DNA of 64,000 bases, from NCBI GenBank assembly GCA_044892505.1, contig CM097883.1:185690001-185754000 (forward strand), in the 5' to 3' direction. The number at the start of each line of letters is the position of its first letter. Position 1 is the stretch's first letter. The translations under genes and the position numbers were made by a program. Source of the DNA: Schmidtea nova. Taxonomy: Eukaryota. The notes under the pieces were generated by a model that saw only the letters and a program-made list of their open reading frames with translations, did not search any database and had not been told where the DNA came from. Shown piece by piece: positions 5,267 through 31,580 of this stretch.

Positions 5267-6154
5267 TACAGGATAAACCAATAAGTTTTGTCCGGTGCTC
5301 ATACTCAGCTTTCCAATGCTGTAATGAGTGTATAGGTCTGCAACTTTGTGTGTCTATGCTATATATGTTGTAGATTTGTAAAATTAAAAAAAATTACTTA
5401 TTAATAATTGTTAACATTGCTATTAACTTTGATATGTCTTACATGGATTAACCACTTTTAATAAATTTCTTGTTTGACTGAAATACCTTTTGTTTTCATT
5501 AGAATACGTTGATTAAAAATGAATTTCGCACGATATGATATCCGTAAGTGAATCTACTACAATTGGAAACGTGGATAAGTGCTTTCCTAGATTGCAAATG
5601 AAATAAATTTTACACTGGGGAAGGGCACAACAAATGAGCGCACTTGTCAACGCTGAGTTGCAAACTTCAAGGAAGGAAACTGTGATGTTGAAGACAAAGA
5701 GCGATGTGGAAGGCCCTCTCTTGATATCAACGACAAAATTCTAGCTCTTTTGGAGGAGCACAACAGTACTGCGGAAATGAGCGTGGAGCTTGGAGTTGGT
5801 CAGCAGACAATTCAAAATGATCTGCTTGCAATGGGCATGCGTTACCTGTGCAACCACTGGGTCCCACACAAGTTGTCCGAGCAACAAATGGCCAACCGTG
5901 AGAAAATATAAAACGAGCTGCTGTGCAAGTATGCTGCTAATGACTTCCTCAGTCAGCTCATTACAATGGACGAAGTCCGAATCTATTAGAACAACGACAG
6001 AACCTATCACCCCTGTTCATGGAGAGGAGCAGATGATGCCCCTGGCGTGGAAAATCGCCGCACACTCTCACCCAGGAAACATTCCTTCTTTTGAGACTGT
6101 AAAGGTGTGGTTATGATGGATAATCTGCTGCAAGGTGTTACAATTACTGCCGAT
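5267..6154 (+). mobile_element. Mariner transposon, 5' part (interrupted by the giant LTR element)
   Basis: TA at 5265-66 then a 31-bp TIR (tacaggataaaccaataagttttgtccggtg). Decayed transposase: TCQR*VANFKEGNCDVEDKERCGRP...WVPHKLS...LITMDE...GVTITAD. Confidence 0.9.
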
Positions 6155-9100
6155 TGTTGGGCCAAAACGCAATTTGTTTTAATAAAGCGATAACCCCATA
6201 GGTAGAGAACGCGCAAGATTCCATTTTTAACCTTAGCTGCCATTAAAAATCTAACAATTACGTGGAAAACACCAATAGGTGAAGTGAAATCAAAACACAT
6301 CAACCGGTAGAGTACGCGCTAGCTGCGAGTTTGTAAGTATTTTCACTGAAATCTCGAGAAAAATTAAAAGCAGAACGTTTGGAAGTTAGAATAGGCGGAA
6401 AACCCATTGAAAGTGCCCATAAAGAACAGAATTTTGTCATAAAATCTTTAGTACAGAAAAATTAACAAAATTTTAGAAGAAAATTGTAAATTTATCACAA
6501 AATTTCACATTTAACAGTAGAGAGAATTGATATGGATCGAAATATCATAAATTAAATCAAATCGAACAAATTTCGATTCAAACATAAAAATTTTGAATTA
6601 AAATAAATTATTTATAGTTTATAAAAAATTATTATACAAAAATATGGAATTAATTTTCGGAAAATCATTAGAATTAATTTAGAAAAAATTAAGAGAAAAT
6701 TCTAGAACAATTTGTTTTATTGCACTAGTGAAGATAGGGTAAAATTGATGGTATATATACCGCCATCAAAATGGCAGAATTCAGAATTTGTGAAAAAATT
6801 TTCGTTTTGTTTAACTAAGAATTTGTACCATTTTCAACAGAAATTGTGGGAGAAAAATTTCTTAATTGTTTCTGAAAATTTTACAGAGTTTTTGGCAGAA
6901 TTTTTGTGAAGATTTCGTGGAGAAAATTCTTTAGAGAGATTATCAGAATTTTTGAATTTCTGTGAAAGAGGAAGAAGACACTGATTCCCGGAAGACCAAG
7001 ATAAAAACGAACATTTTATAAAAGAAATTTTCGTGTGAATTTGAAGATTTTCCGGAGTTTGCGAATCACTGAAAGAAATGTAAGGATTAATTGTTTTTTT
7101 TTAACTTGTTTTTGAGGGGTTTGGGATCGTCGATCATCATGCCTGACGATCATCCCATTCCTCGCACTTTATTAATTGATATGGTATTTGTTATTTGTTA
7201 ATTTTAATTTAATGCTAACACCTTATTATGATATTATTAAAATAAAATATTTGATTCATATTTTATTCGATTTAGTTTTAAATTTTTTCTTGTTGTTATT
7301 ACTATCATCACAAATTCCCAAATTAATTAAAATTTCATATGAGCAATTATCTAAATACGAAAAAATAAAATTTTTTTTTTCTCCCTTATCTTCTGACGAT
7401 CCGTCCAGCCTTGGTTGTGCGGATCTGTTAGTAGCCTGGGTGGATCGTTCTCTGATTAGTAATCGGCCAGCCCATATTTCCACTTTAAGGTGAGGCTCAT
7501 ACATCCATAATCTCGTCATCCCAACTGGGGAATCGTGGTATGGCCAAGAGCAAGGATTTGTTATACTAATGATTTTTATTATAATAGAGTAGCATATTTT
7601 TATTATCTACATAAGCAATTTCGTAATACAACATAAAATTTTCTAACTCATGTCTTGAAATCTAAAATAGGAAATATTACTGATTAAAAAATCGACTCGT
7701 ACTCACCTTCACCTTCACACTCTCAACGACGATCATCTTATGAGAAAACGCAAGAAAAATGGATGCTAATGATGAAAAGAAATCGTTCGAATTAATGCTC
7801 AAATCCAATGGAATGGTAATGAAACCGAAATTAACCTTACTCGATGTCGAAAAATATTCGTTGAAAAATTTATAACTTATTTTTATTTTATTTTTATTTA
7901 GCATATAAAGACTTTTTAGATTTTGGATTTCGAAATTTATGGATAAAAATGTATTATTATTTCATTTTGGTCAAGAATAAAAATTTGCTTTTTATTATAC
8001 TGCAAAAATTTTATAATGAAAAAATTGTAAACCAAAAATTTTCCTAATATTGTTATGATATAAAAGATTTTGTCATTTTATAAAATTCCTAAGAATTTAT
8101 AAATCAAAACTTATATTGAAATCCATAAAAATTTTAAATCGAAAATATTATTATTATATTGAAAATTTTATCATCTTAAAAAAATCCAAAATTTCAAAAT
8201 TTTATAGTAAAATTTTTATTATATATATATATATATACTTAAAATATAAAAATTCGAACCTAAAAATGTATATTATAAAAATTAGAAATTTTATTATTAT
8301 ATTATTTTCATAAAATTATAAATTTAAAATTTATAAAAAGTATTATAAAAATGTATATTATAAAAATTAGAAATCTTATTATTATATTATTTTCATAAAA
8401 TTATAAATTTAAAATTTATAAAAAGTATTATAAAAATGTATATTATAAAAATTAGAAATTTTATTATTATTTAATTTTCATAAGATTATAAATTTAAAAT
8501 TTGTAAAAAGTATTATAAAAATTATTATTATTATTTTGATATAAAAATTATTATTATTATTTTAATTTTAAAAATATTTTTTATGATTTAAATATAGTAT
8601 AATATAACTACCCCACGATACCTCAAAATCATAACGCATCTCTATTTGCAAAAAATTACATCCATTTCATTCAATAACATTTTCCATACTAATACACACG
8701 CAACATCTATTTAAAATACAATATACACACATACACAGTATCATTCAATAACATTCAACAATCACATACACACCAACAAACCATACCAAAAATTCCACCC
8801 AGACTTGCTAGTTAGCATCGTACGTCCAATCACACGCACAAACACTCAATTGTTCCCATCACCTATCCACAAATCGCACGCAAACACGATAATAATAAAG
8901 TCATACAAATCTAAAACAATATTACACACCATCATTCTATCTCACTCTACTCAACATACCATCGCATTCAACTCATACAATCACCCTTAATATCATTTAA
9001 TTGCATTTTTTTTGTGGCGAATCAACAAGTTCTGCCAAAACCTTTTCATAACAATCTATGGAAATCATACAAAAATCTACCATTATACGGCGAGGGTACA

Positions 9101-10330
9101 TAAGAAATCCGTAAAGTAAAATAATTTACCGGACGGAGGACTAAGTAAATCTGATCCAACAATGCCGCATAAACAGAAAAGATTTTTTTATTAAAGCCCA
9201 ATAAAACTCATAATTTTGATTGGAAAATCCAACAAAACTCATAATTGTGAAATTATTTTATTCAAAATCAAATAGTCTAAGATAATTGTGAAATTGTTTT
9301 ATTCAGGATCAAATAGTTCATTAGCATGATTAAAAAATCAAATAGTCCAACTGCATGGCTTCTTGTAAAGATAAGACGGTACCAAACTGTCCATAAATCG
9401 TTCTCTGCATATGAGATGATAATAGAAATACAAATCGTTGGAATAAATTTCGACACATTGGGTCATGATCTCCAATCTTCGATGCCCAGAGTTTGTAGAG
9501 GGTGATCTTGCGGTGAAAAGTAACAAAATTTACCTAAAAAGATAAATCAAAAAATAGAATATCTCCTTCAAAATGAATATTACCGTTTTTTTTGTTCGGG
9601 AAATTTCCTATTGAACTCTGATATAATTGCTATTATACTCCGGATCTCTAAAATGGCTAATTGAGAAAAATTTTATAAAAAACCCGAACTTACCGTTAAG
9701 ACCACATCGGGATTTTTGTTTCTTGTAAATGGATATATATATGTATATATGAGTATATATACATTAATTGTATTATATATATGTATATTTGAATTATATT
9801 CGTTTTAAATATATTTATTAACAGACTTAAACAAGGAGTTTAAGATTTGTTAATTTAGTAATAAACTGGCCAAATGAAGAATTAAATTCAAACTTTTCGA
9901 TGCATAATTAAGATTCATTCTTAAAAAATTGTATTATTTATTATTTATCCTAAAATTACAATATTAGAAAAATTTAATGTTTATTAGTGTTTTCGAATGT
10001 TCGGAATAATTTATTTGTATTTATAATTATGTAAAATATTTATGTAAATTTCTGATAAAATTTGTATTGAAAGCTTATAGGTAAATCATATAAGAAGGGA
10101 CAAAATGGGCATTAAACCTTCTATCGGTAGCCCTTGGACCCAGGAGATATTCGGTCAATCATAGTTTCGTATTGACGACGCTCACTGATTGCGAATACAC
10201 ACCCACTTGTTACAGTACCAACGTTACATAGTGACGGGTAACAAGATGGTAATTTCAATGTTTTATGTGTTGAGTTGTTGATGAGAGCCATAGAAACGTC
10301 AAGGTCATATTGACGGTCAACAACCCACCA
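6155..10330 (+). repeat. 5' LTR (4176 bp)
   Basis: Starts tgttgggcc and ends aacccacca. Near-identical to 27012-31103 and followed by the PBS. Confidence 0.97.
8261..8515. repeat. 85-bp AT-rich tandem repeat inside the LTR (3 units; 2 units at 29118-29287 in the 3' LTR)
   Basis: Unit starts taaaaatgtatattataaaaattagaaa at 8261, 8346 and 8431, versus 29118 and 29203. Confidence 0.9.
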
Positions 10331-10340
10331 TATAAAAATT

Positions 10341-10358
10341 TGGGGGCTCAGCCGGGAT
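10341..10358 (+). promoter_or_regulatory. Primer-binding site complementary to a tRNA-Pro 3' end
   Basis: tgggggctcagccgggat, 10 nt downstream of the 5' LTR. Compare the canonical tRNA-Pro PBS TGGGGGCTCGTCCGGGAT. Confidence 0.88.
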
Positions 10359-12870: not shown

Positions 12871-13353
12871 ATGCAATCGATTGAGCATATTTTACTACGA
12901 ATCGAGTCGTTTTTCGATTTTGAAAAGAACCCATTGCAGGTGTTGAGCGAGAAACTCGAACGAGTAAACGGAATAAAAGATGAATTATTGTTGAATCCTA
13001 GACCACAACCTAAGAACCTAATAGTGATTGCAGGAATTGTGGTAACAACAAACGATATTTCGTTAGAAACGGTTTATAAATATCAACGATTGCGACTGAA
13101 TAATCCGAATTTTAATCTAAAAATACAAGAATGGATTGGTAAAATCGATAAAATCATGGACAAGCTAGAGAGATCGATAAATCAACAGATCGATTCGTTC
13201 GAAAGATGTTATATTTGTCGACAAAAAGAAGCGAACATTTTATTCATGCCATGTGGGCATTTGTGTTATTGCCAGCCGTGCTCTAGAGAAATAAAGAGAT
13301 GCGTAATCTGCAAACAGACAATTGATGACAAAATCGTCGTATTTTGTTCGTAA
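12871..13353 (+). CDS. 160-aa protein with C-terminal IAP/MDM-type C3HC4 RING (putative E3 ligase)
   Basis: CYICRQKEANILFMPCGHLCYCQPCSREIKRCVICKQTIDDKIVVFCS* has the IAP-type RING spacing and terminus. ttttag immediately precedes the ATG. Confidence 0.88.
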   Translation: MQSIEHILLRIESFFDFEKNPLQVLSEKLERVNGIKDELLLNPRPQPKNLIVIAGIVVTTNDISLETVYKYQRLRLNNPNFNLKIQEWIGKIDKIMDKLERSINQQIDSFERCYICRQKEANILFMPCGHLCYCQPCSREIKRCVICKQTIDDKIVVFCS

Positions 13354-14372: not shown

Positions 14373-14650
14373 AGATAATTGAGAAACTTTGAGAGTCCAT
14401 TAAGAGACTTTGAGAGTCCAGATAATTGAGAAACTTTGAGAGTTCAGGAAGAGACTTTGAGAGTCCAGTAAGAGACTTTGAGAGTCCAGTAAGAGACTTT
14501 GAGAGTCCAGATAATTGAGAGACTTTGAGAGTCCAGGTAATTTAGAGACTTTGAGAGTCCAGATAATTGAGCGCTCTGGGAGAGACTTTGAGAGTCCAGA
14601 TAATTGAGAAACTTTGAGAGTTCATGTATGTGAGAGACTCTGAGAGTCCA
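14373..14650. repeat. Minisatellite: 11 copies of core ga(g/a)actttgagagt(c/t)ca with short variable linkers
   Basis: Counted directly. Linkers include gtaa, gataatt and ggtaattta. Lies in the non-coding leader of the 1035-aa ORF. Confidence 0.9.
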
Positions 14651-15409
14651 ATGTTTGTGAATATTGTTGAGAAATTTAGGAAAACGTTTGAGAGATAGAA
14701 TTAAATAAAACTGCGCAGTTATAATTTCGTTATGACAGAGAGAAACGTTGAACGAGAATACTTAAGGTGTAGTAATATAAACCGTTAACAAGAGCAGATA
14801 AAAGATATCGAGAAATACTTAGGAAATAAAATAATGGCCATGAATAGATAACGAACAAGACATTTTTTCCTCGAATGCCGAGATGAGTATGATTATACTG
14901 TTATTATAGTATTAGTATTGTTATTATTATTGTTATTATTATTATTATTATCAGGGTATAGATAATTGATACGACTATATAGACAATTATTACGAGATAT
15001 AGATAATTTAAAATCTGAGCTCAGAGTAGAAGGGGGGTAAATAGCGTCGATGAAGAAGCGATTTTTTATTTAGATTGTCCAACAGATCAAAGCCAAGCCA
15101 AGAGATAGTCAAATCAATCAGTTATTGAAGAGGTATATATAGAAGAAAAGAAGAAAAAGAAGTCTAATTGAAAAGGAAAGAAGTAAAAGAAAATAAATCA
15201 AAGAAGATCCAATTGAAGATAAAAGAGAGATCAGCAATCGATATTAAACGCAAATCGATAATATTACCAAACCAACGAAGTTCATAAAGTCGAAAGGTAG
15301 AGTCAAATCTCTAAAGAAACGACGAAAGGAAATTACAAAGAAGCAAAGCTGATAAATAAAGAAGTAAAATCCACAATATTAGAAGTTTGTAGCCGATTTT
15401 CAGAAAGAA

Positions 15410-18400
15410 ATGGAGAATCAGAAAGTTACCAGTGTAAACTCGGAAGATAATTTATTAGAAGAAGAGCAGAAAATAACCAGTCCAAACGTAGAAGATAATT
15501 TACAGGAAGAAGAAAAAGAAGTAGTAACAATGAAAATGCAACTACAACAGAATATCGAAGGAAAAGTAAATGAAATGATAACCGAATTATCAGACGTTGA
15601 AATTGAAAGAAATGGAAATGTATATGAATTTTCAGTAAAAGATATGGAGGGAGAAGAAAAGAAGAAGTTTGTGGAGAAATATAACCGACAAAGAAGAGAA
15701 AGAAGAAGCAATGATGATACATGTAGCATGGACGAGAAATGGGATGAATCTACGACAATCAAATTAGAAGAAGTGGCACAAAGATTGTTAAACATTACCA
15801 TAGAAGAAATGACGAAAATGAATCAGAAGTCGGAAGAAAAAAGGAAATCAGCGAAGCTCGAAAGATCGAAACAAACAGAGACGTCAAAGACCGAACGATT
15901 AATCAGTAACCTAAGCAAGAGTGCAGGAAATCAATGTGAAACAACAACTGAATTACTAAAATGGGTTATAAAAAATAGTGCAAATATATCAAACATGAGA
16001 TTGATAGTGAGAGAAATCGAGAAATGCAGACGTTTATGCCCTTGGTATTCAACACAATTTGATGACATCATGAGAAAATGGAAACAACTGGAACAAACAA
16101 ACGATGATCCACAGATGTGCAGATTGAAAATTCAATTTCCGAATCTAGAAGAAATAAAGATGAATGTATCATTAACAACAAAGATCAAAGAGATAAAAGA
16201 GAGATTACCATTTAACTTACCATTTCACGTGAAATATGATGGAGAATCGCTGGATGATGATATAGAAATCGGTGTAACCCCGATACAAATCGAAACAAGT
16301 AATAAATTAACTGTTGATAAAATTGCAGGAAGCGAGTTGACCAGAAAAGCGAGAGGTGAAGATAATCCCGAAACAACGATAATTGCAATGATGAAAACTC
16401 CAGCTGGACCAACACTTACAATTAACATCGAGGTTAATGGTGTGAAAGTTGACGCGATGATAGATACTGGCGCAAATATATCAGCAATAGATATCGATAT
16501 GATACCAGAAATGTTACGGTTATGCATCGAGAAAACATCGGTAGACGTAATAACATGCAGCAAAGAATCTGTCAATATCGTTGGAAAGATATGGACGGAC
16601 ATCGAATACAAAAATGTGAAAATATCAACTTATTTGACAGTAATAAAACAACTAGGTGCACCATGCATTATTGGAACAGACTTAATACCAAAACTGTTAA
16701 AAGGATCTGTAATTGATTTGAATACGATGAAGTTGGAACACCTAATTGAAGAGAATTGCACAAGAGAAACAATGATAGAACAATCAAATCCAGAAACAAC
16801 CAGAAAAGGACAAGTATATATGTTTCGTGAGAATAAAAATGACGATTGGCTACATCGTATATTAACTACGAGCAGAAAAGTAAATCAGTCAACAACAATA
16901 TCTGAACAACCTAAGATAGTTGACGATGTAAAAATGGAGCACCGCAAAAAGATGGAATTGATCATTGAGATTACCAAAGAAATTATGCCAGAATGGTCAA
17001 AAAGTAAAGATCTATTTGAAATATTAGGAGGAGTAAGCCTGATGGTTGAGGAATATGCCAAAGGAAATGAAACGACAGAAGCGATGAATACCATAAAAGA
17101 AAGATTACCAATATTATTTACAATTGCCAGTTTTAAAGATGAGATACCGTTATACCACGCAATAAAAAGTGGGAATGAACAGAGAATGTTTGAAATCATA
17201 AAACTCATGGAAAAGTGTAAACAACATACCAACACGAAAAATTGGAAAGATCAAACACCCTTGATGATAGCAATTGAAAAAGGAGGATCCAAGAAACTCA
17301 TAGCAGAACTGATGAGAACCGGATCAAGTTTTAAAGAAAGAGATGATAAAAATGAAACGGTGTTATCATATGCAGTGCAAGCAAATAACCATCAAATAAT
17401 CAAATATATTATGACAAATGCTACAGAAGAAGATATTGAAGTACTCAGTTCAGATCCAAATCCATTAGTAAATGCAGTAAACAAAGATGCGGACGAAACA
17501 ACAGCCAAAATGATTAAATGGTTACATCCAGAGACGCACGAAGGAGTGATAAATGTCAATGACAGATTTGAAGACGGTGAAAATATGATAATGAAAAGAG
17601 CCATGAAAAGAAAATGGAAAATGTACAAAACGATTAAAGCATTGCTGCAAAGACCTGATTTTAGATTTACGAACAACAAAAAAGAAAAAGAAAGAATTAG
17701 ATCTAAAAGACATGAATTATATCAGCAAGTCATCATATGGAAGGAAAATATAAAAGAAAGCAGAATTCACCGAAGTTGGAACAACGCCAAAGATGAGATA
17801 ACCAAGAGAGCAAATATAAAAGCCGAAGCAGATGAAATAGCTAAAAGATATGAGGAAATAATAAAATTAATAAATGTCGAGGACGACATTTTAAACGGAA
17901 CCGAGGGTGGTTCCGATGATCACAATAAGCCTGACGATGAAGATGAAGAAAATGATAACAACAAAACAAAGAAAGATGACAATGAAAGTATCAACAGAAA
18001 CAATGACAAAGACGAGAAAGATGATGGAAAAAGCAACAAAGATGAAAATGGGAACAAAAGTGATGAACCCAAGCAAGAAACTTCAAATTATGAGAAACGA
18101 ACAGCATGTCTACATAAAACTCGAATAAAAGACATAATATTACTGATATTGATGCTGTCAGCATTGAAAGGAACGGAAGCTGATGACAAGAGAAAACCAG
18201 TACAAGTATTAATACAAGGAGCAGATAATGAAGAAGCATGTTGGAGTAGCGTAAAATTGCAAATTAAAGGAGATAATCCAGTCAAATGTCAACGAGCAGA
18301 AGGAGGAGAAATCCGAATAAATGGATTAAAACGAGAAACGAAATATAAAATCTGTGTTTACAAAAAGAAAGCAGCACAAGAAATGTTTAGAACACTCGTA

Positions 18401-18517
18401 TGCCAGATAGTTGCACATAATGGTTCAAAAGTCACCCAAGAAGACATAAAAGTCATATTAACCGACGAGCCAGATGAGAACATCAGAATGTCGTCGAAAC
18501 GCAAGTTGTCAGAGTAA
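15410..18517 (+). CDS. 1035-aa polyprotein: charged/coiled N-terminus, ubiquitin-like domain, retropepsin aspartic protease, ankyrin repeats, acidic linker, hydrophobic segment, FN3-like C-terminus
   Basis: Protease IEVNGVKVDAMIDTGANIS...CIIGTDLI (DTG at 16463-71). Ankyrin-like IPLYHAIKSG, TPLMIAIEKG, TVLSYAVQAN, NPLVNAVN (~17138-17600). Ubl-like RLKIQFPNLEEIKMNVSLTTKIKEIKERL...YDGESLDDD (~16118-16300, tentative). FN3-like IRINGLKRETKYKICV (tentative). Confidence 0.85.
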   Translation: MENQKVTSVNSEDNLLEEEQKITSPNVEDNLQEEEKEVVTMKMQLQQNIEGKVNEMITELSDVEIERNGNVYEFSVKDMEGEEKKKFVEKYNRQRRERRSNDDTCSMDEKWDESTTIKLEEVAQRLLNITIEEMTKMNQKSEEKRKSAKLERSKQTETSKTERLISNLSKSAGNQCETTTELLKWVIKNSANISNMRLIVREIEKCRRLCPWYSTQFDDIMRKWKQLEQTNDDPQMCRLKIQFPNLEEIKMNVSLTTKIKEIKERLPFNLPFHVKYDGESLDDDIEIGVTPIQIETSNKLTVDKIAGSELTRKARGEDNPETTIIAMMKTPAGPTLTINIEVNGVKVDAMIDTGANISAIDIDMIPEMLRLCIEKTSVDVITCSKESVNIVGKIWTDIEYKNVKISTYLTVIKQLGAPCIIGTDLIPKLLKGSVIDLNTMKLEHLIEENCTRETMIEQSNPETTRKGQVYMFRENKNDDWLHRILTTSRKVNQSTTISEQPKIVDDVKMEHRKKMELIIEITKEIMPEWSKSKDLFEILGGVSLMVEEYAKGNETTEAMNTIKERLPILFTIASFKDEIPLYHAIKSGNEQRMFEIIKLMEKCKQHTNTKNWKDQTPLMIAIEKGGSKKLIAELMRTGSSFKERDDKNETVLSYAVQANNHQIIKYIMTNATEEDIEVLSSDPNPLVNAVNKDADETTAKMIKWLHPETHEGVINVNDRFEDGENMIMKRAMKRKWKMYKTIKALLQRPDFRFTNNKKEKERIRSKRHELYQQVIIWKENIKESRIHRSWNNAKDEITKRANIKAEADEIAKRYEEIIKLINVEDDILNGTEGGSDDHNKPDDEDEENDNNKTKKDDNESINRNNDKDEKDDGKSNKDENGNKSDEPKQETSNYEKRTACLHKTRIKDIILLILMLSALKGTEADDKRKPVQVLIQGADNEEACWSSVKLQIKGDNPVKCQRAEGGEIRINGLKRETKYKICVYKKKAAQEMFRTLVCQIVAHNGSKVTQEDIKVILTDEPDENIRMSSKRKLSE

Positions 18518-18675
18518 CCAGTGGAAGGAACAGTGTATATAGTGTATAAAATTATATTGTATTATAAAAGTAGAATATTTTTTTGTATAATAAAAATTTA
18601 AAAAAAAAAATCCAAAAAATGAATACCTCAAAACTGGGAAAAACAAATGATAATATTGTGTAATTATTGACAGAA

Positions 18676-19311
18676 ATGAATCCGAACAACGAGAATCAAA
18701 GTTATCAAACATCAGTTCCAACGTTCAATGAACCATCAAATCAAACTCAGTTTCCAGAAGATACCAATATACGAGAAAGAGAAGGGTCACTGCAAACCCC
18801 AGTAATCGAAAATGAAACGCAAAATCCAACAATTGACAATAGAAACCTGATATACCAAGTCGAAATTCCACTATTTGATGAAACCATGAACCCAATTCAA
18901 ACGACATTCGTATTAAATCAACAACCAACAAATAGCCAGACTCAATCAATATCAGCTCCGATGGTTTATCAGCAGACAATGACGCAAGAGTTATCATGGA
19001 AAACGCAATGTGAATTATTAAGCAGGATGTTGAATCAAGCCTACGCACAATGGAAAAACGAACAAGCTTTGTTAACAGAAAGTGTAAACAGAAATTTATT
19101 ATATCTTGCTAAAATGGAAGAACAACAACAAATGATAATCCAAAAGGACCAGAGAATTGAATGGTTAACAAGACATACGGAGTGGCAAACAAACGAAATC
19201 AGAAGATTGAATGAGACGCGAGAAGAAGTCAGAGCATGGTATAACTGGTTAGACAATTTTCCAGAACCGGTTCGAGAGCCTGACTCGACGGGAAGGGATG
19301 AACTATTATAA
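18676..19311 (+). CDS. ~211-aa protein of unknown function (Q/N/P/T-rich N-terminus, coiled-coil C-terminus)
   Basis: Open frame with the same codon style as its neighbours. The first ATG (18676) is preceded by ttgacag-aa. Confidence 0.7.
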   Translation: MNPNNENQSYQTSVPTFNEPSNQTQFPEDTNIREREGSLQTPVIENETQNPTIDNRNLIYQVEIPLFDETMNPIQTTFVLNQQPTNSQTQSISAPMVYQQTMTQELSWKTQCELLSRMLNQAYAQWKNEQALLTESVNRNLLYLAKMEEQQQMIIQKDQRIEWLTRHTEWQTNEIRRLNETREEVRAWYNWLDNFPEPVREPDSTGRDELL

Positions 19312-19405
19312 AAATTTAAAACCAGTGTAAATAAAATGTAAAAATGTGAATATGAATAAAACTTGGTATAAAGAGCAAAACGAAAAAATTATAAATTATT
19401 TTAGA

Positions 19406-20809
19406 ATGCAGACCGAGAATCAGCAGAAACAAGAGGAATTGATCGAACTATATCAGATACTACAGAGACAACGGATAGAACCAACAGAATTTCAAGAAAG
19501 ATTTAAATGTAAAGTATGTAGAAATTTATTGATAGAACCCAGACAAACTGAATGTGGATGTCGAATATGCACTAATTGCGTGATGAAAATAATACGAACA
19601 AAACAGAAGCTATGTCCTGAATGTGGTGAAGCAATAATAGACCAATTTGACCAAACCAGACCAGATATCGCAATGAATCGGGAAATAATGAACGCAGCAA
19701 CAACCTGTCCAAATAAACCATGTGCATGGAGTGGGCCAATAAAATGGATCGCCAAACACCTTTATAATTGTGATGATACGAAAGCCAAATGCAAGTGGTG
19801 TGAAGAAGAAATTTTGAAGAAAGTCAAAGACAGTCATGAGGAAATGTGTGAACAACGACAGGAAATCTGTGAGTTTTGCAACGAAACAGACGCTTGGATA
19901 GTGTTAAAAGATGAGCATTGGAATATAGAAGAAGGGCAAGTATGTGACGAGTATGAAGGTAATTGTAATCAATGTGGAATGGCAGAAAACGTGAAGCTAA
20001 AAGAACATTGGGAAATATGCGAAAAGAAGCCTACTGCATGTCCACTAAAATTATTCAATTGCAAAGCGAGATTACCAAAATAGGAAATACAAAAGCATGT
20101 GGATGAAAATAGTGTAAATCATTTGAGAACCATTGTGGAAGCTATTGGAGCAACCGCGCTGGTAATTGGAGAAGCCAACACAGAAATAAAATCACACAAA
20201 ATCATGATACAAGAGATGTTGGATACGAGAGGAAATTTTGAAAGAATAAGAGAACAAATGATCCAAAAAATGATACTATTAGACCAGAAAATAGCAGAAA
20301 TATCAACAATCCAACAAAGATTGGAAAGCATATTGCCAACAATGGAAGAACTACCCGTCACACCCTACTATTGGAAAATCACAGAATTTACAGAGAAATT
20401 GAGACTAGCAAGAGAAGGAGGTCAACGTGTATGGACAAGTCCACCTTGTCACAGTTGGAAACATGGTTACAAGCTTAGATTCAAAGTATATCTAACGGGA
20501 GACGGACTAGGAGCCGGAACTCATTTATCTGTATATTTTCAAATATGCAAAGGAGATTATGATGATTGGTTAGAATGGCCCTACGATTGCGATATAACTA
20601 TGATGATCGGAACAAAGGAAAACAACGTTCGGGAAGTATTCAGACCAAACTTGAGGAAGGTAGAAGCAGCTTATAAGAAGCCGATCGAAAACTACAACGT
20701 AGCTGTAGGAAATCCACGTTTTATTGCACTACATTATTTAACCATAGAACAATCATTATATTTGGTAAATAATATCCTGTATCTGATTATCGAAGTAAGA
20801 AAGCCGTAG
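19406..20809 (+). CDS. TRAF-family protein (RING, TRAF zinc fingers, coiled coil, MATH) interrupted by one in-frame TAG at 20081-20083
   Basis: RING CKVCRNLLIEPRQTECGCRICTNC...CPEC; zinc finger CPNKPCAWSGPIKWIAKHLYNC; MATH YYWKITEF...SPP...GYKLRFKVYLTGDGLGAGTHLSVYFQICKGDYDDWLEWP. Track ORFs 19346-20083 and 20099-20809 are in the same frame (LPK*EIQKHVDENSVNHL). The start could alternatively be the ATG at 19352. Confidence 0.9.
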
Positions 20810-21041: not shown

Positions 21042-22211
21042 ATGACTGAAAGGAAGATCGTGAAAATACGAGAAGATGACAGATCATTCAAATGTTTATG
21101 CGAATTAATGAAAAGAGATAAAGAAAAGATGTCAAAACCAATTACCTCAGAAATGATCCATTGTCGATTTACACGAACAATATCGAATGTTCCTAAGGAA
21201 AGGAGTTATGGAAAATTCAAAATTATTGATGAAACGTTAAAAAACGAGAACCGAAGATATATAACCTTTTTACAACAAGACAACTTCTATGAAAAGCAAT
21301 ACAGAAAATTTGCCAAAGATGGTTTGTATTTTGCAGGGACAATTGAGAAACCCGATAAAGTAGCCTGTGTATTTTGCAGAATTGAAATAGAACCTTGGAG
21401 AATTAACGATGATCCACTAACAGAACATAGAAAACTTTCACCCACATGCCAGTTTGTGTTAAAGGCTTGCGAAAAACCAAGAAAATCAGCAACAATGAAC
21501 AATAATGAAGAAGAAAAACCCAAAATAGTAACGATAACTTCAACAGGTCCAGCAAAGATACGATTCATAGAAGTTGACCCAAAATACACGATTAATGGGA
21601 GAACTAACACTTTTGTAGATAAAAAGATGGGTATCAGATTAGCAATAGAAGGTTTTTATGCAATAAATGAATCAACCGCTGAATGTTCAGAGTGTGGAAT
21701 ACAATATCAATTACCAAAAATGGAAGGAGAATACCTGAAACACAACGAATATTGTAAATATAGAGAAGAATTATATGAAGACGAAGAACCGATCAATTAT
21801 AAAAACCCAGAGATGCCTGTTAATGAATTATTAGTAGACAAGATATTAGATGAACCACGAACTCAAAAGGCAATGGAATGCACCGGCAAAAGCGAAATAT
21901 TTATGAAAGAAGTCATCAGAGAGAGATTGAGAAGAAATGGAGAAACATTTGGATCAACCCTAGAATTCTTTAAAGCTATAATACAGTTCACCAGAAAATC
22001 CCAAGTTGTCAACCCAGAATCATGTATCAAGAAAATTATATTAAATAAACACCCCTGTTCAATCTGTTGGATAAAGAAAGTGGAAGTTATTCATTTACCG
22101 TGTGGACATCTGTTAGCATGTGAAAATTGTAGCAATAAATTGAGATTGTGCTCAATGTGCAGGAAACCGATCGACAAACGGATCAAGGGATTCCGTTATG
22201 CCGATCAATAA
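21042..22211 (+). CDS. Inhibitor-of-apoptosis (IAP)-like protein: BIR, degenerate BIR, UBA-like segment, RING
   Basis: Canonical CX2CX16HX6C BIR (CVFC...DDPLTEHRKLSPTC); a second BIR-like unit (GRTNTF...LAIEGFY...CSEC...KHNEYC); a UBA-like segment (KAMECTG...VIRERLRRNGETF); RING CSICWIKKVEVIHLPCGHLLACENC...CSMCRKPI. Confidence 0.92.
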   Translation: MTERKIVKIREDDRSFKCLCELMKRDKEKMSKPITSEMIHCRFTRTISNVPKERSYGKFKIIDETLKNENRRYITFLQQDNFYEKQYRKFAKDGLYFAGTIEKPDKVACVFCRIEIEPWRINDDPLTEHRKLSPTCQFVLKACEKPRKSATMNNNEEEKPKIVTITSTGPAKIRFIEVDPKYTINGRTNTFVDKKMGIRLAIEGFYAINESTAECSECGIQYQLPKMEGEYLKHNEYCKYREELYEDEEPINYKNPEMPVNELLVDKILDEPRTQKAMECTGKSEIFMKEVIRERLRRNGETFGSTLEFFKAIIQFTRKSQVVNPESCIKKIILNKHPCSICWIKKVEVIHLPCGHLLACENCSNKLRLCSMCRKPIDKRIKGFRYADQ

Positions 22212-22345: not shown

Positions 22346-23893
22346 ATGAATATACAACAATTGATAGACATCCTAGATCAGGAGATGGCAAAAAGACAAG
22401 AGCAACTAGATCAAATGAGAAGCTATGAACAAAGAATGGAAGCCATCCAAGAGAACGTTAAAATGATTGAAAAACGAACCCAAGAGATCAATAAAATAAA
22501 AGAGGAAAATGAGGAACTACGAAAGATAATAAATGACAAGGCGCATATCGAAGCTGAACTAGGAAATTATAAACGAGAGTACAGGGAAATGGAGAGAAAA
22601 CTCGAGCACGAACAACGAAAGTCGGTACCGTTGAAAAACCAAGCGAGATTAAGAAAAGATGAGCTCGAAACTTATAAAAGAGATACCGAAACAAGATATG
22701 ACAACTCCATAAGATTCTATCAGCAGCAACTCGAAAGTGAAAGGAACAGATATGAAGCCATGAAAAAGAAATGGGAAAAGTGTCGAGATGAAGCATTTGC
22801 TTTGAGAGGACAACCTCAAAAGAAGCTTAAAGTCAGAACAAGAAACATTGAGCCTGAAAGCGAACAAGAAAAGATCATTAGAAAAGTTAAAGCAGAGGCT
22901 AGGAAATGGAAACAAGAACACCAAGATTTATTGGAAATGGCTCGACACAGAAAAACGCTACAGGAAGAATTATTAAGACGGAGAGACGTTCAAATCGAAG
23001 CTCTGAAAGAGGAATGTCATTGGTATGCAGACATACGTCATGAGGAAACGGAGAAACTCAGAAAAGAAACATTCCAGTTGAAAACGAGCGGACAATTCAG
23101 AGAACGAAGCATAAGGCATCAAATAAAGTGGCTAAAAGAACAAGCCAGAACATGGAAAAAGACCTGGAAAAGAACTCGAGACGAACTACGAGAATTCCCA
23201 AAGAAGCTGATGTCAATAAATGAAGCAGAATTGTGGGAGAATGCAGAAAAGCAAGAGATAGAAAACAAAGAATTAAGACGGCAAGTTCAATTAAAAACTG
23301 AATGGAATCAAAGGAGAATGAAATTTACCAGGAATCAAGAAGCTCGTATCAAATATCTGGAATTTGAAAATAGGCAATATGATCAACAGAAGAATATGGA
23401 TGATCAAAGTATTGAAGAACTGACAATAGAATTGACTATTGCAAACCGTGAAGTCAACGGATATCGAGGAACAAATACTCATAAAGATATTGTCATTCAA
23501 CACCAGCGACGGCAGATAGAAGAGACAAAGGCCGAATGTGAAAAAGCAATCCAGCAATCCCAAAAGGAAATTGAAATGGCTATCCAAAGTTTGGAAGAAA
23601 ACCGCCAAAACTATGAAAGAGAAATTGAAAGGCTGAGAAATATGGAAAATACGAGAGAGCTCGAGATAGAAAAGGAACAGCTGAGTGAAGAACTCGATTA
23701 TATGACATATTTGCTAGATGAAGAGATAGAAATCTCAAGAACTTTGCGAGAAAGAGTTCAGAGCCTACAAAATCAACCTCCAATAATTCTATGGCCACTA
23801 TATCCAACACCAATACAACCTGTACATTTGGAGCAAGAAAATCCTCAAATCGAAGATGAAGGGTTCGGAGAAATTGAAGAGACGTTTGTATGA
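22346..23893 (+). CDS. 515-aa long coiled-coil protein, function unknown
   Basis: Uninterrupted E/K/R/Q-rich heptad-like ORF with an acidic, Pro-rich tail; tttcag-a-ATG start context. Confidence 0.8.
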   Translation: MNIQQLIDILDQEMAKRQEQLDQMRSYEQRMEAIQENVKMIEKRTQEINKIKEENEELRKIINDKAHIEAELGNYKREYREMERKLEHEQRKSVPLKNQARLRKDELETYKRDTETRYDNSIRFYQQQLESERNRYEAMKKKWEKCRDEAFALRGQPQKKLKVRTRNIEPESEQEKIIRKVKAEARKWKQEHQDLLEMARHRKTLQEELLRRRDVQIEALKEECHWYADIRHEETEKLRKETFQLKTSGQFRERSIRHQIKWLKEQARTWKKTWKRTRDELREFPKKLMSINEAELWENAEKQEIENKELRRQVQLKTEWNQRRMKFTRNQEARIKYLEFENRQYDQQKNMDDQSIEELTIELTIANREVNGYRGTNTHKDIVIQHQRRQIEETKAECEKAIQQSQKEIEMAIQSLEENRQNYEREIERLRNMENTRELEIEKEQLSEELDYMTYLLDEEIEISRTLRERVQSLQNQPPIILWPLYPTPIQPVHLEQENPQIEDEGFGEIEETFV

Positions 23894-24192: not shown

Positions 24193-24768
24193 ATGAGACT
24201 ATTGAAGCAAAGATCAGAACCAGAACAACAGACGATATCAAAAGAAAGATTCAAAAAATGGAAGAGAGCAACAGAGCAATATTATCAAGACCAAATAGAT
24301 CAATTGAAGGAAGTAATGAGCAAAGATAGAAAATATATCGCACAAATGGAACAAAAGTGCGAGACGATGGAAATAATCAAGCGAGAAAATTATCTATTTC
24401 GCCAACAAAATGGTCTTACCCAAAAATATTGCGACAGACAGAAGCAAGAGATTGACAGACTCAAAAGGGAAATAAACAGTGAACAGAACACTGATAATAA
24501 AAGGAGAATTAAGATCGAGTCATTACAACGATCCTTGAAGAGCAAACAGAAAAAGATTATCAAAAGAGAAAAACAGATAATAAAGTTGAAAAGTGAAATC
24601 ATAGAAGCAAAGTTTGATACATTCAAAGCAAAGAAAGTTGTAGAAATCAAAACGGCAGAAAATTACGTCCTCAAAGAACAAAGGCGAAAAGAAGCAGACG
24701 AGATTGCAAAAATGGGTAACTGGAAGCCAGAGAGTCCGTTAAAGCTAAATGAAGAGACGAAAGAATAA
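24193..24768 (+). CDS. 191-aa basic coiled-coil protein, function unknown
   Basis: Open K/E/Q/R-rich ORF; attatag-aaa-ATG start context. Confidence 0.72.
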   Translation: MRLLKQRSEPEQQTISKERFKKWKRATEQYYQDQIDQLKEVMSKDRKYIAQMEQKCETMEIIKRENYLFRQQNGLTQKYCDRQKQEIDRLKREINSEQNTDNKRRIKIESLQRSLKSKQKKIIKREKQIIKLKSEIIEAKFDTFKAKKVVEIKTAENYVLKEQRRKEADEIAKMGNWKPESPLKLNEETKE

Positions 24769-24863: not shown

Positions 24864-25709
24864 ATGAGCAATCTAATGAGGATCACAACAACCATCATGA
24901 TATTTATGATTACAAACTGCCGAAGCGAAGAAGCATTGAGTCAATGTCAAGCAAGCCATCCATTTAGAAGGTCCGATAGCATCTGTGTAAGCTATCAAGA
25001 AATTTGTATCACCAGAAATGAGGAGTGTCAACAGATACAATTACAATGTCAACAATGTCCTAAATCCAGTGAAGATTCAATCACCATCCTTAAACAATTG
25101 AGAAATGAAACTCAACAATTAATCCAACTACAAATCTCCTTAACCAAAAGAAACAATCTTCAACTAAAGAAACAGCTCGAAAACCAATCATCTTTCAAAC
25201 AGTTGACTACCGAACTAAAGAAATTGAGCAAGTTAATAGAAAAATCTCTAAATAATAAAGATGAAGTTAACGAGGAAAGATCAAGTTTTACAGAGGAGTT
25301 AAATCAAAAACTAAAAACTCAACTTCATCAGACCGAGAGAATTATAAAGCAATTGGTTTTATCCGAAAAGCAAAAAGAGATTATCCCTAAACAAGGATCA
25401 ACAAACGAAGACGTCAGAGACCGAGAAGCAGCCATCACAGTCGTTCTACAGGGCATCAGTCTTTTCGCGGTCATAATGATCTTTAGCATTGTTGCATCAA
25501 TCGGATTAGAGAAAATGAAATTAGAGAAAGCGAAAATACAATTGAATACAATCAAACGAACCACACATGAAGACAACAACCCTTCAGAAAATTTTCTGCG
25601 ATCAATATTTGAAGATCCAGTTCAAGAACAGCCTAATCCTGAGACATCTACAACCTCGGTGCAGATGAATTACTTCTATAACAATAATACGATTCAATTC
25701 ACCTTTTGA
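24864..25709 (+). CDS. 281-aa predicted type I membrane protein (signal peptide, Cys-rich head, coiled coil, TM, tail with PVQE)
   Basis: Hydrophobic N-terminus (ITTTIMIFMITNCRS), six Cys in the head, L/Q/K heptads, TM AAITVVLQGISLFAVIMIFSIVASIGL, and a tail containing DPVQEQP (25617-25631). Confidence 0.8.
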   Translation: MSNLMRITTTIMIFMITNCRSEEALSQCQASHPFRRSDSICVSYQEICITRNEECQQIQLQCQQCPKSSEDSITILKQLRNETQQLIQLQISLTKRNNLQLKKQLENQSSFKQLTTELKKLSKLIEKSLNNKDEVNEERSSFTEELNQKLKTQLHQTERIIKQLVLSEKQKEIIPKQGSTNEDVRDREAAITVVLQGISLFAVIMIFSIVASIGLEKMKLEKAKIQLNTIKRTTHEDNNPSENFLRSIFEDPVQEQPNPETSTTSVQMNYFYNNNTIQFTF

Positions 25710-25888: not shown

Positions 25889-26692
25889 ATGAAATCGTAC
25901 CGAGAAGTTTTTCTAATCGCCATGATCACAACAATTTATTGTCATCTCGAAGAAACCCAGAAATCAAGCCAATTAAACCCAAATCAACAATGTAATAAAG
26001 AACCATTTGAAATCTCTAACAACAAACAACTATCCGAAAAGATTGAGCAAGCCAAAATCGAAATTCAAAATACCCTTTTCAATCAAAATGATGAAATTTC
26101 AGGTCTAAAGAGAATAGCAAGGATAATATTAGCAGACTTAGCGATCAGAGATATATATGAGGATATTTTTGATAGTGATCGAGAAACCCGTGATGCAATA
26201 AAAAGTCTCACCAAAGAATTAAAAATGAATATAGGCAAGTTAATCGATCAGCTAACGATAAATTCATCAAGTCCGAAATGTCTGAAACAAATCCAGCAAA
26301 TTCATCATAACCTGTCCCAGCAGATTTCCGAAGTAGGAAACCAAACGGCACAACAACTGAGAAAGGCTTATTTCGAAAACCTGGCATTTAGGAATAAAAT
26401 CCACGATCACATAAACGAGATATCGAAACCGGATAACAATCAAGACAGAGACAAGTGCAGAGCATCCCTCCTATCATCCGAACGAATTCTCGATATCTGC
26501 CTGATCATCCTTAACTTTTTCCTAATAATCGGAATTTGTGGTATAATATGGTTAGGCTTGACCACCACAAGAATGATGAACAACATGACCTCCGAACAAT
26601 CCGGAAGCGAAGATGACAAGAAACGGTTGATCAATACCGAGTCATTCAAACTATCCCAGCCGAAGACCCAACAAATTCAATTCAAAAGTTAA
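25889..26692 (+). CDS. 267-aa predicted type I membrane protein (signal peptide, coiled coil, TM, short tail)
   Basis: N-terminus VFLIAMITTIYC, heptad-rich ectodomain, TM ILDICLIILNFFLIIGICGIIWLGL, tail ending QIQFKS. Confidence 0.8.
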   Translation: MKSYREVFLIAMITTIYCHLEETQKSSQLNPNQQCNKEPFEISNNKQLSEKIEQAKIEIQNTLFNQNDEISGLKRIARIILADLAIRDIYEDIFDSDRETRDAIKSLTKELKMNIGKLIDQLTINSSSPKCLKQIQQIHHNLSQQISEVGNQTAQQLRKAYFENLAFRNKIHDHINEISKPDNNQDRDKCRASLLSSERILDICLIILNFFLIIGICGIIWLGLTTTRMMNNMTSEQSGSEDDKKRLINTESFKLSQPKTQQIQFKS

Positions 26693-27011
26693 ATTCAACA
26701 AACTTAATAAACTTGATAAAACTTTTATCCGAGTCGCTGTAGACTCATATCGAACTTTGATTAGCCGCTGTAGGCACATATATTACATTTATTTTTGCTT
26801 GTGAGTCGATGTAGACTCATATTAAGGTATACGTATTAAATTTTTATTAATTTTTATAAACTTTTTATTTTTATTGTCGCGAACGGCATGGCATGATCAC
26901 GACCAAGTAGCTCGTGTATAATGTACAACCTTTTGACCTTTGATTAGTCTTGGTTCTTAACCCCTCTGAGAAATTGCGGGACGCAATCTTTGCGGGCCCC
27001 CGAGTATTTTA

Positions 27012-31103: not shown

Positions 31104-31580
31104 CGATGTTTACTACAAACAGCTGCCCGTCTGGTGCTGGCAATACAACAAAAGCGACTTCGTCTTCTTGGTGGTTGATTTCATCAAATTTAATATCTCC
31201 ACGACAATGCACGACCCAATACGGCAGCCAAATCTGTGCAGAAATTTACTGACATTGGTTTTACTGTTCTACCACATCCCCTTTACTCCCAAGACCTCGC
31301 ACCATCCGATTTTTATTTGTTTTCCCCTTTGAAATCTGCAATTCGTGGAAGAGATTTCAACGGAGTTGATGAAATTCAAGTGGTTCTGGACACTTGGTTG
31401 GACAGTAAATCACGCAGCTTCTTCGCCGATGGAATCAGGAAACTACCTGGTCGATGGCGCCGATGTGTCCTTCATAATGGTGCATATTTTGAACATCTCT
31501 CTGACACAGATGATTGACATTTTTGATGTTTTGAAATTTATATATGTTTCACCGGACAAAACGTATTGGTTTATTTTGCA
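31104..31580 (+). mobile_element. Mariner transposon, 3' part
   Basis: Continues DVYYKQL...LHDNARP...LPHPLYSQDLAPSDFYLF...RWRRCVLHNGAYFE. The 3' TIR at 31550-31580 matches the 5' TIR at 27/31 positions and is followed by TA. The rejoined element is ~1.36 kb. Confidence 0.92.

Follow-up and report, generated by a model that had tools for sequence, protein, structure and literature searches.

What is encoded by a long open frame in which a retropepsin is followed by ankyrin repeats rather than by RT, and what does the protease serve there? This question was raised by an earlier note on the window, the whole 64,000-nt stretch of DNA analysed here, in which a single open frame of 1,035 aa extends over 15410..18517 on the plus strand. 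The ORF is one of nine passenger genes on a giant LTR element, and several of these genes are cell-death regulators. The reading we favour, held with about as much confidence as doubt, is that a young, trans-mobilised Burro-like giant LTR element, itself non-autonomous, carries the ORF as cargo, and that the protease encoded in it processes its own ER-anchored precursor.

The 1,035-aa ORF is a real gene. When the bases were shuffled 200 times, no stop-free frame exceeded 194 aa. A codon usage score trained on the other ORFs of the element was positive in all ten 300-nt blocks from 15431 to 18430, the tail included, whereas both remaining plus-strand frames of the region scored negative. Upstream of the ATG the codon usage is not coding-like, and the frame is charged and riddled with stops. 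The encoded protein comprises, in this order, a helical N-terminus, a SUMO-like ubiquitin-like segment (Ubl), a retropepsin, ankyrin repeats, an acidic linker, an internal signal-like segment and a beta-rich tail. No gag match was obtained in Pfam for the N-terminal acidic/helical region (15410..16114), and neither NCBIfam nor a Pfam search of the segments at the N-terminus, behind the protease and behind the ankyrins gave anything above cut-off. The whole-protein model built without an alignment had a pLDDT of 39.5 and was left out of the fold search.

A relative of the whole ORF was not found. Residues 230-780 were compared with proteins of near length, and of the 7,995 candidates scored only two, both generic ankyrin proteins, came up; residues 160-1035 matched none of 3,450 shorter proteins, and residues 232-460 none of 470 longer ones. 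A 1.84-billion library yielded 1,843 matches at E<=0.001. Among the 150 library matches listed, the best stretch lay in the ankyrin region for 148 and in the protease for two, a 181-aa protease fragment (P0090, 60.9 bits) and a gypsy polyprotein (P0087, 61.4 bits summed over three stretches). None of the 152 stored matches resembles the other ORFs of the element, and only P0087 possesses both RT- and PR-like motifs. Such blanks do not show novelty, and host proteins may be missing from the collections. The literature search met with neither a pol-less derivative of Burro nor the cassette grammar set out below; the original Burro accounts or Repbase may describe one.

The ORF lies in an LTR element of 24.9 kb in total, with an internal region of 16.7 kb in which ORFs, most of them open, take up about 10.7 kb. 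Self-BLAST delimited a 5' LTR of 4,176 bp with TG...CA ends (6155..10330) and, together with the LTR alignment, a 3' LTR of 4,092 bp (27012..31103), both on the plus strand. The two LTRs are 0.44% apart, with 18 mismatches in 4,089 aligned sites. The element is flanked by a 4-bp target-site duplication, 6151..6154 on the left being identical to 31104..31107 on the right, and the 5- and 6-bp flanks differ. The LTRs and this duplication are marks of an integrase-made insertion. A PBS-like motif, which we take to resemble a tRNA-Pro site, is found at the atypical spacing of 10 nt past the LTR (10341..10358, plus strand). At the place expected for the polypurine tract lies an imperfect inverted copy of the 30 nt on the PBS side (26982..27011, minus strand), and no purine run of at least 10 nt occurs in the last 511 nt of the internal region. 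No significant RNA folding was seen where the internal region meets the 3' LTR (z -0.21). Rfam gave no match at gathering scores in 6000-31200, and a search for tRNA genes was also negative. The non-coding leader carries a tandem-repeat array with periods of 21, 26 and 89 nt (14378..14650, plus strand).

Pfam was run on the 64 frames of at least 60 aa between the LTRs, and none of them gave a match to gag, RT, RH, IN or env. The scan did recover, with E 9.5e-11, the RT of a neighbouring LTR-type element, which served as positive control. Neither YxDD nor CCHC motifs occur in the six frames of 5000-32000. The tblastn search for pol remnants was negative too, with a weak control (a true RT at E 0.011), so the claim of absence is carried by the Pfam scan. 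The earlier note had seen neither a CCHC knuckle nor a clear capsid, which agrees with the motif scan and with the lack of a gag match in Pfam, and no RT behind the protease, where about 130 unassigned residues lead without a gap and in frame to the ankyrin repeats. The element appears to be non-autonomous, and it is supported that the retained retropepsin is the only replication-type gene left. Judging from the LTRs and duplication of an element without gag or pol, an autonomous partner would have copied and integrated it in trans.

The nine ORFs are all on the plus strand. An IAP-type RING ORF of 160 aa (12871..13353; zf-C3HC4_3, E 9e-14) precedes the protease gene; its paralogue is the C-terminal portion of the IAP gene (29% identical, E 8e-10). 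Downstream of the protease gene are an ORF of 211 aa with nothing above the Pfam cut-off (18676..19311), a TRAF gene with RING, zinc fingers, coiled coil and MATH (19352..20809; TRAF-mep_MATH, E 3e-23; TRAF3_RING, E 0.005 and below cut-off), and an IAP gene with BIR (E 6.8e-16) and RING (E 4.6e-11) (21042..22211). The IAP gene is open, and the TRAF gene is interrupted by a single in-frame stop (20081-20083). Further downstream are a charged, coiled-coil-like ORF of 515 aa without a Pfam match (22346..23893), a basic coiled-coil-like ORF of 191 aa (24193..24768), and two ORFs of 281 and 267 aa (24864..25709 and 25889..26692), each with an N-terminal signal-like segment and one TM helix by hydropathy. 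Pfam gave no match to a BCL2-like motif in the element frames scanned.

A common layout, acceptor-ATG-ORF-stop-TGTA/AATAAA, was discerned for the nine ORFs. In the protease gene, a predicted pyrimidine-rich 3' splice-acceptor-like site (15391..15403) ends 6 nt before the ATG, and TGTAHATA and AATAAA (18534..18594) are located 17 nt and 72 nt past the stop. By a rule set only after the sites had been seen, acceptor-like sites precede the first ATG of seven of the nine ORFs, compared with 34 of 370 other ATGs in the element and 83 of 536 and 111 of 588 in the flanks. TGTA is present at +15 to +17 past the stop in six of nine ORFs, versus at most 1.9% of arbitrary stop triplets, and TGTAHATA in five of nine, versus at most 0.5%; the excess has a p of 2e-7 after x50 correction, for a window picked after the fact. 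The three donor-like sites upstream are all weak. Each ORF, that of the protease included, would be expressed from its own subgenomic mRNA, through alternative cis-splicing from the LTR leader or through SL trans-splicing, with internal polyadenylation. An ORF on its own mRNA would therefore give a stand-alone product, not a gag-pol read-through. SL trans-splicing has been described for Schmidtea, and operons for other flatworms (PMC12582326).

This layout bears on the strongest alternative, a deletion relic, in which a Burro-like element lost gag, env and pol by internal deletions and the protease is a passenger in a chance in-frame fusion with ankyrin and a residual signal and ectodomain, open only as the insertion is young. 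We consider this rather unlikely. The ORF has its own acceptor-like site and the common TGTAHATA at +17, as its neighbours do, the coding signal is uniform down to the stop and begins only at the ATG, and no pol remnant was detected anywhere by Pfam or tblastn in the element, which was inserted in its present form with a target-site duplication. For so recent an insertion, however, an open ORF is to be expected even if selection is absent: the ORF should by now have gathered 0.40 stops and about 1.5 frameshifts, and the probability of no hit is about 0.15, or about 0.67 when stops alone are counted. The relic is also favoured by the already broken TRAF gene, the stop-riddled frame upstream and the lack of relatives in the protein searches. 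Moreover, Burro itself has such domains fused within a single polyprotein, and fragments in a decayed state are reported from Dugesia japonica (PMC6431247).

The earlier note's intact DTG protease was borne out. The retropepsin spans residues 333-445 (16406..16744), with the catalytic DTG at residue 352 (16463-16471) and IIGTD at residue 420, and passes the Pfam RVP cut-off of 20.7 bits both within the whole protein (25.4 bits) and as an isolated domain (30 bits). A homodimer model scored 0.47, against 0.00 for the best control, with a pLDDT of 80; its runs agree in at least 57% of contacts, and the DTG lies at its interface, where Asp-Asp and Thr-Thr contacts of the catalytic motif are formed. 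Among solved structures, this mark was attained in the microbial set by 21 of 30 homodimers but by none of 23 monomers, and in the eukaryotic set by 17 of 29 and none of 30, respectively. Since solved retropepsin dimers exist, this pass denotes likeness, not activity.

The ubiquitin-like segment (residues 236-308, 16115..16333) is tentative. What stands of the earlier proposal is its position before the protease and PF11976, Rad60/SUMO-like, as top and sole match; this match is weak and below cut-off (E 0.0073-0.0088, 16 bits against 23.8), and SUMO-like. Among PDB sequences the best match is 5n9v (E 0.51), presumably a ubiquitin-like domain. The segment ends in IAG, and ubiquitin-style cleavage after it by a host deubiquitinase was set aside, as the end is AG and not GG.

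With a tentative Ubl N-terminal to a dimeric retropepsin, the dimer here being a model, the ORF resembles Ddi1/DDI2, and the protein might bind and cleave ubiquitinated host proteins, perhaps those tagged by the RING ligases of the element, with the ankyrins choosing substrates. Three RING genes lie alongside, the best PDB sequence matches of the protease are of the Ddi1 family (E 0.033-0.083, 17.5 bits), and PF09668 scores 29.9 bits on the isolated domain, above its cut-off of 26. However, these matches do not discriminate, because P0090, which matches DDI1/2 and HIV protease about equally weakly, and P0087, which also matches PF09668, give them too. The 60.9 and 61.4 bits of these two exceed the 17.5 bits of Ddi1, although the figures come from different searches, and by its nearest proteases the enzyme is probably of retroelement type. 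The protease of the neighbouring element was compared with PDB sequences as a control, without any protease match, so this control is uninformative. Only about 25 residues separate the Ubl (308) from the protease (333), which leaves no room for an HDD of about 110 aa. Ddi1 activity requires this helical domain (PMC7149228), which occupies residues 86-196, between UBL and RVP, in yeast Ddi1 (PMC5028754). The ORF further differs from Ddi1/DDI2 in an internal Ubl, the lack of a UBA match, the ankyrins, the ER-signal-like tail and its place inside an LTR element. A Ddi1-like effector is thus improbable, and the analogy drawn at the outset is weak.

The ankyrin region (17144..17674) matches Ank_2 in Pfam (E 3.4e-10) and 104 PDB sequences at E<=0.01. 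Three repeats are clear (about residues 579-680, to about 17449), and one or two are degenerate (about 684-755, read by eye). Ankyrin repeats behind the protease are confirmed, though not directly adjacent to it. The label 'IkB-like' is unverified, with no IkB among the 60 of 104 PDB ankyrin matches listed. The acidic low-complexity linker of D, N, K and E (17885..18109) is present as first described, and no in-frame Met lies in it upstream of the signal-peptide-like segment (18110..18181). This segment shows a basic n-region, an 11-residue h-region and a small-residue c-region. Its h-region (909-919) is the most hydrophobic 11-mer of the protein, with a score reached by 16 of 1,000 residue shuffles; the hydrophobic core stands out, and the signal itself is plausible by hydropathy. 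The beta-rich tail of 111 aa (18182..18514) possesses four Cys and, at residue 1004, one N-glycosylation sequon. Its FN3 identity is unconfirmed, as FN3 was matched neither in Pfam nor by PDB sequence. A single-sequence model of the tail (pLDDT 49.7) had no Foldseek match at E<=0.001; its best Z was 5.5 (rmsd 3.1, 81 aligned), to unrelated generic beta-sandwiches, and all 50 fold-comparison (VIA) rows were at background Z with no recognisable FN3 entry.

For the favoured reading of a self-processing cargo protein, these features suggest the following course. The internal signal would put the C-terminus into the ER, where signal peptidase would free a small secreted beta-domain. The Ubl-PR-ankyrin part would stay cytosolic and membrane-tethered until the protease acts, and cleavage of its own precursor in the linkers, as by pol proteases, would free the ankyrin module. 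Self-processing by the retained retropepsin is the most economical reading. The cargo may act on host ubiquitin and cell-death signalling and so keep carrier cells alive, a role proposed because of the neighbouring TRAF, BIR-RING IAP and second RING genes and because of Burro1, whose RING-BIR is reported second-hand to protect planarian stem cells from apoptosis (PMC13465017).

The protease could also act on a partner instead of on its own precursor. A non-autonomous element must share particles with its partner, and there the protease, of retroelement type and the only replication-type enzyme kept, would process or mis-process the autonomous partner's polyprotein, with Ubl and ankyrins as targeting modules. 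Such a helper or interfering element is quite improbable: the partner would bring its own protease, no gag would carry the protein into particles, and the ER-signal tail and ankyrins would be superfluous. Least probable of all is an assembly artefact, with gag and pol of an autonomous element lost in a scaffold gap or repeat collapse: near-identical LTRs can be homogenised in assembly, and two of the eight N gaps in the window lie in the element leader (10626-10962 and 11724-11857) and could hide sequence, but no N occurs from 11858 to the 3' LTR, across the protease-to-ankyrin junction, and the LTR ends and duplication match.

The reading as a self-processing cargo gene can be extended, though we think the extension unlikely, to a gag-less and pol-less satellite turned mobile cell-survival operon, with nine genes from one LTR transcript by SL trans-splicing, co-regulation through a 3' UGUAHAUA element, of PUF or CFIm type, placed at a constant spacing past the stop, a signalling protease that frees an ankyrin module from an ER anchor, and a small secreted ectodomain. 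In such an operon the retropepsin may no longer serve particle maturation, and the plus strand may be primed at the mirror copy of the tRNA site, not at a polypurine tract.

If a Burro relative has shed its replication genes yet retained TRAF, IAP, ankyrin and protease as separately expressible cassettes, this would point to selection acting on cargo, not on machinery. It would then represent a step between a selfish element and a domesticated gene cluster, and a retroelement protease that has exchanged particle maturation for a regulatory role. Exact junction positions and poly(A) sites follow from the cassette grammar, with predicted acceptors that end at 12870, 15403, 18673, 19404, 22344, 24189, 24860 and 25871. 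If the ORF is only a young deletion relic, the result is an annotation note on Burro-like elements.

Among known systems, P0087 (2,855 aa, gypsy-type) carries three retropepsins 25-28% identical to that of the ORF; behind the third lie an internal signal-like segment and a short GLxxxTxY motif similar to the ORF's. The likeness of the tails is a 14-residue match reached by 23 of 1,000 shuffles and serves as analogy only. Unlike the ORF, P0087 has an in-frame fusion glycoprotein, a TM anchor, RT, RH and IN, and neither ankyrin nor Ubl was matched in it. Large retrotransposon derivatives resemble the element in their long LTRs, the lack of pol and movement in trans, which for the element is our inference. 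According to PMC6431247, citing Kalendar 2004, their material between the LTRs is rarely more than 10 kb and need not code, whereas the element has 16.7 kb with largely open ORFs, protease included.

Burro/GYPSM1 elements are described, in the same account, as giant gypsy-like LTR elements of planarians with internal regions up to 25 kb and totals that can exceed 30 kb, and with a polyprotein of 4,873-5,140 aa that holds gag, CCHC knuckles, an in-frame env and PR-RT-RH-IN; their cargo includes PF11976, MATH-TRAF, BIR and ankyrin, and a BCL2-like motif in Burro-2 to -4 (PMC6431247). The element, large yet below these maxima, has in common with them the LTR form, retropepsin, ankyrin, MATH-TRAF, BIR/RING, coiled-coil, accessory ORFs and tandem repeats, and the SUMO-like family of Burro is the top match of its Ubl, below cut-off (E 0.007-0.009). 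The proposed kinship is based on this shared domain content, and a planarian host is suggested by the A+T richness of the sequence and by the cargo. Unlike Burro, the element shows no match to gag, env, RT, RH, IN or BCL2, only PR being found; unlike in the Burro polyprotein, the cargo is split into nine separate ORFs and the Ubl is placed directly before the protease. The domain mix itself is not new, being already published for Burro/GYPSM1 (PMC6431247). What looks new is an apparently non-autonomous element, free of pol and gag, whose cargo is arrayed in operon-like cassettes with a common grammar.

The frame at 15410-18517 (+) holds 1,035 open codons, whereas the longest open frame in 200 base shuffles reached 194 aa. 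Its codon usage, scored with a model trained on the other ORFs of the surrounding LTR element, is positive in 10 of 10 blocks, including the tail, and is not positive upstream of the ATG at 15410. The long open frame together with the positive codon usage throughout denotes that the entire ORF is coding-like and not read-through. A retropepsin was found above the Pfam cut-off at residues 338-429, with DTG at residue 352 and IIGTD at residue 420, and the intact DTG protease claimed in the earlier note stands. Two copies were modeled as a dimer with Asp-Asp and Thr-Thr contacts, at a score of 0.47 versus 0.00 for the best control, a pLDDT of 80, and at least 57% of contacts common to separate runs. 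Among solved structures, the dimer mark was passed by 21 of 30 homodimers from microbes and 17 of 29 from eukaryotes, and by no monomer (0/23 microbial, 0/30 eukaryotic). Since retropepsin dimers are already solved, the predicted dimer shows an intact-looking retropepsin fold, not activity.

The other domains fared unevenly. The ubiquitin-like segment (Ubl) proposed ahead of the protease lies at residues 236-308, where PF11976 (Rad60/SUMO-like) is the top and sole Pfam match, but its E-value of 0.007-0.009 misses the cut-off and the segment ends in IAG. About four ankyrin repeats had been placed behind the protease; three are clear and one or two degenerate (Ank_2 at residues 581-670, E 3.4e-10, Pfam), but they start only after a gap of about 130 residues. 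Their supposed IkB-like character was not borne out, with IkB absent among the 60 listed of 104 PDB matches. The signal-peptide-like stretch is the most hydrophobic 11-mer of the protein, a score reached by 16 of 1,000 shuffles, and no in-frame Met was found in the linker ahead of it. The FN3-like label of the tail (111 aa, four Cys, one sequon) was not confirmed, as no profile matches FN3 and the fold model is too poor to decide. Taken together, the earlier observation is partly confirmed and its interpretation partly supported.

No relative of the whole 1,035-aa protein was found in the protein collections searched, including a library of 1.84 billion proteins. Among 150 library matches listed, the best stretch lies in the ankyrins for 148 and in the protease for two. 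Of these two, P0090 is a 181-aa protease fragment (60.9 bits). The other, P0087, has 2,855 aa and is a polyprotein of gypsy type that combines three proteases, RT, RH and IN with a fusion glycoprotein in frame; its third retropepsin lies past the integrase, and beyond it come a signal-like segment, a Thr-rich stalk and a TM helix. This polyprotein is unusual in itself, and it denotes that a protease followed by an internal signal occurs in gypsy-type polyproteins. Between the tails of P0087 and the ORF only a 14-residue match was found, which 23 of 1,000 shuffles reach.

The ORF resides in an LTR element of 24,949 bp (6155-31103) with LTRs of 4,176 and 4,092 bp, which differ at 18 of 4,089 sites, by four small indels and by one 85-nt repeat unit. 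The termini read TG...CA, and a 4-bp target duplication flanks the element. A PBS-like motif, putatively matching tRNA-Pro, sits 10 nt in from the 5' LTR boundary; a purine tract was not found ahead of the 3' LTR. The ends of the internal region (10331-10360 and 26982-27011) are imperfect inverted repeats, so that the PBS-like motif is mirrored at the expected place of the polypurine tract; the score of the inverted 30-nt copy was equalled by 1 of 20,000 random 30-mers of the window and 17 of 20,000 shuffles. These mirrored ends could mean that a tRNA primes both strands, or they could act as a paired recognition site. Pfam yielded no gag, env, RT, RNase H or integrase match in any of the 64 internal frames of at least 60 aa, shorter frames and the LTRs being covered only by a motif scan and an insensitive tblastn; as positive control, an RT elsewhere in the window was recovered at E 9.5e-11. 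The element leader contains two N gaps. Just upstream of the insertion, a 98-nt stretch (4925-5022) is 73% similar to the LTR 3' end (10175-10272) and may be what remains of a related LTR.

Eight further ORFs accompany the protease-ankyrin gene: an IAP-type RING ORF (12871-13353), which is a BIR-less paralogue of the IAP C-terminal part with 29% identity, an unassigned 211-aa ORF, a TRAF gene (19352-20809), a BIR-RING IAP (21042-22211), the second IAP-type RING gene of the element, two coiled-coil-like ORFs, and two signal-plus-TM ORFs (24864-25709 and 25889-26692). The latter two occupy the env position, match no family above cut-off, and are possibly small surface proteins. TRAF carries one in-frame stop (20081-20083), and about 1.4 stops are expected across all cargo ORFs at the observed LTR divergence.

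The nine ORFs share a cassette-like layout, a feature absent from the earlier note. A pyrimidine-rich YAG occurs 0-17 nt ahead of the first ATG in seven of nine, compared with 34 of the 370 other ATGs in the element and, in the right flank, 83 of 536 and 111 of 588; the misses are TRAF, with the site before its second ATG, and the BIR-RING IAP, whose TAG at 5 nt upstream did not satisfy the rule. TGTA begins 15-17 nt past the stop in six of nine (stops at 18517, 19311, 20809, 22211, 23893 and 24768) and extends to TGTAHATA in five of nine, whereas arbitrary stop triplets are followed by these in no more than 1.9% and 0.5% of cases; the motif presumably resembles PUF or CFIm elements. The p-values of 3e-6 for the YAG rule and 2e-7 for the TGTA rule (after x50 correction) are optimistic because both rules were framed after site inspection. 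An A[A/T]TAAA hexamer lies within 150 nt past every stop, although the A-richness of the sequence makes this weak evidence. Past the ORF, stop-to-stop frames are spaced by 20-297 nt, under the 300-nt threshold for flatworm operon candidates (PMC12582326), and SL trans-splicing is described in Schmidtea (PMC12582326). Just three weak donor-like sites were found upstream. From this arrangement we infer that each cargo ORF may be carried on a separate subgenomic mRNA, via cis- or trans-splicing.

The LTR insertion marks with no pol detected in cis, the nine cassettes, and the ORF with its intact retroelement-type retropepsin, ankyrins and hydrophobic internal segment form the basis of a proposed mechanism. 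The element would be mobilised in trans, and a spliced mRNA would start the ORF at 15410. Residues 901-924 would insert into the ER, with a small beta-domain released and secreted; self-cleavage by the protease would detach the ankyrin module from its membrane tether, and the product, with TRAF and IAP, may act on host ubiquitin and death signalling. The whole chain has about an even chance of being right; its first links are firmer and quite probable, namely that the element is non-autonomous, that its cargo is Burro-like and that the protease is of retroelement type.

The main rival, a young deletion relic, is unlikely but deserves weight: the LTRs are 0.44% apart, the frame would stay open without selection at a chance of 0.15-0.67, and the TRAF reading frame is already disrupted. 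A Ddi1-like effector is improbable. The protease's best PDB matches are Ddi1-family (E 0.033, 17.5 bits), PF09668 exceeds the cut-off on the isolated domain, and a tentative Ubl precedes the retropepsin as in Ddi1/DDI2; but P0090 matches DDI1/2 and HIV protease equally weakly, gypsy-type P0087 also matches PF09668, and the 25-residue Ubl-protease spacing is too short for the helical domain of Ddi1 (HDD), which is needed for activity (PMC7149228) and occupies residues 86-196 of the yeast protein (PMC5028754). A helper protease is slightly less credible still, and mis-assembly of the element is the least probable reading.

Other mobile or putatively mobile sequences were also observed in the window. 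A second, frameshifted LTR-type element (41700-44560, -) has protease-like, RT, RNase H-like and DUF7047 regions and is flanked by a 70-nt direct repeat (41167-41236 and 44546-44615). A DDE_1 transposase fragment lies at 2105-2842 (-). The stretch 38957-41202 (+) contains N gaps and three or four ORFs, one with a partial proteasome-subunit match (E 5e-7), and is possibly another captured-gene element. Inverted-repeat pairs at 35431-36032 (216 nt at 95%) and 52314-54479 (about 300 nt at 81%) are MITE or DNA-transposon-like.

The closest comparison is Burro/GYPSM1, giant gypsy-like LTR elements of planarians. They exceed 30 kb and encode a polyprotein of about 4,900 aa with gag, MATH-TRAF, PF11976 SUMO-like, BCL2, in-frame env, PR, RT, RH and IN, besides BIR and ankyrin motifs, accessory ORFs and tandem repeats (PMC6431247). 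The presence of PF11976 there raises the odds that the weak Ubl call is correct. Burro1 RING-BIR is reported to guard stem cells against caspase-mediated death (PMC13465017); passages in PMC8532177, PMC11410931 and PMC13238120 mention Burro with nothing on structure. A gag-less, pol-less, operon-like protease-only form is apparently undescribed in the literature searched, though the supplements to Grohme 2018 and Lee 2026 may describe such derivatives. The cargo is alike, but the defining polyprotein was not detected in our element, which is therefore not assigned to Burro. It fits a non-autonomous LTR derivative, bigger and more coding than the usual ones, whose internal part is rarely above 10 kb (PMC6431247). 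Base composition and cargo suggest a planarian host. The domain mix is anticipated by Burro.
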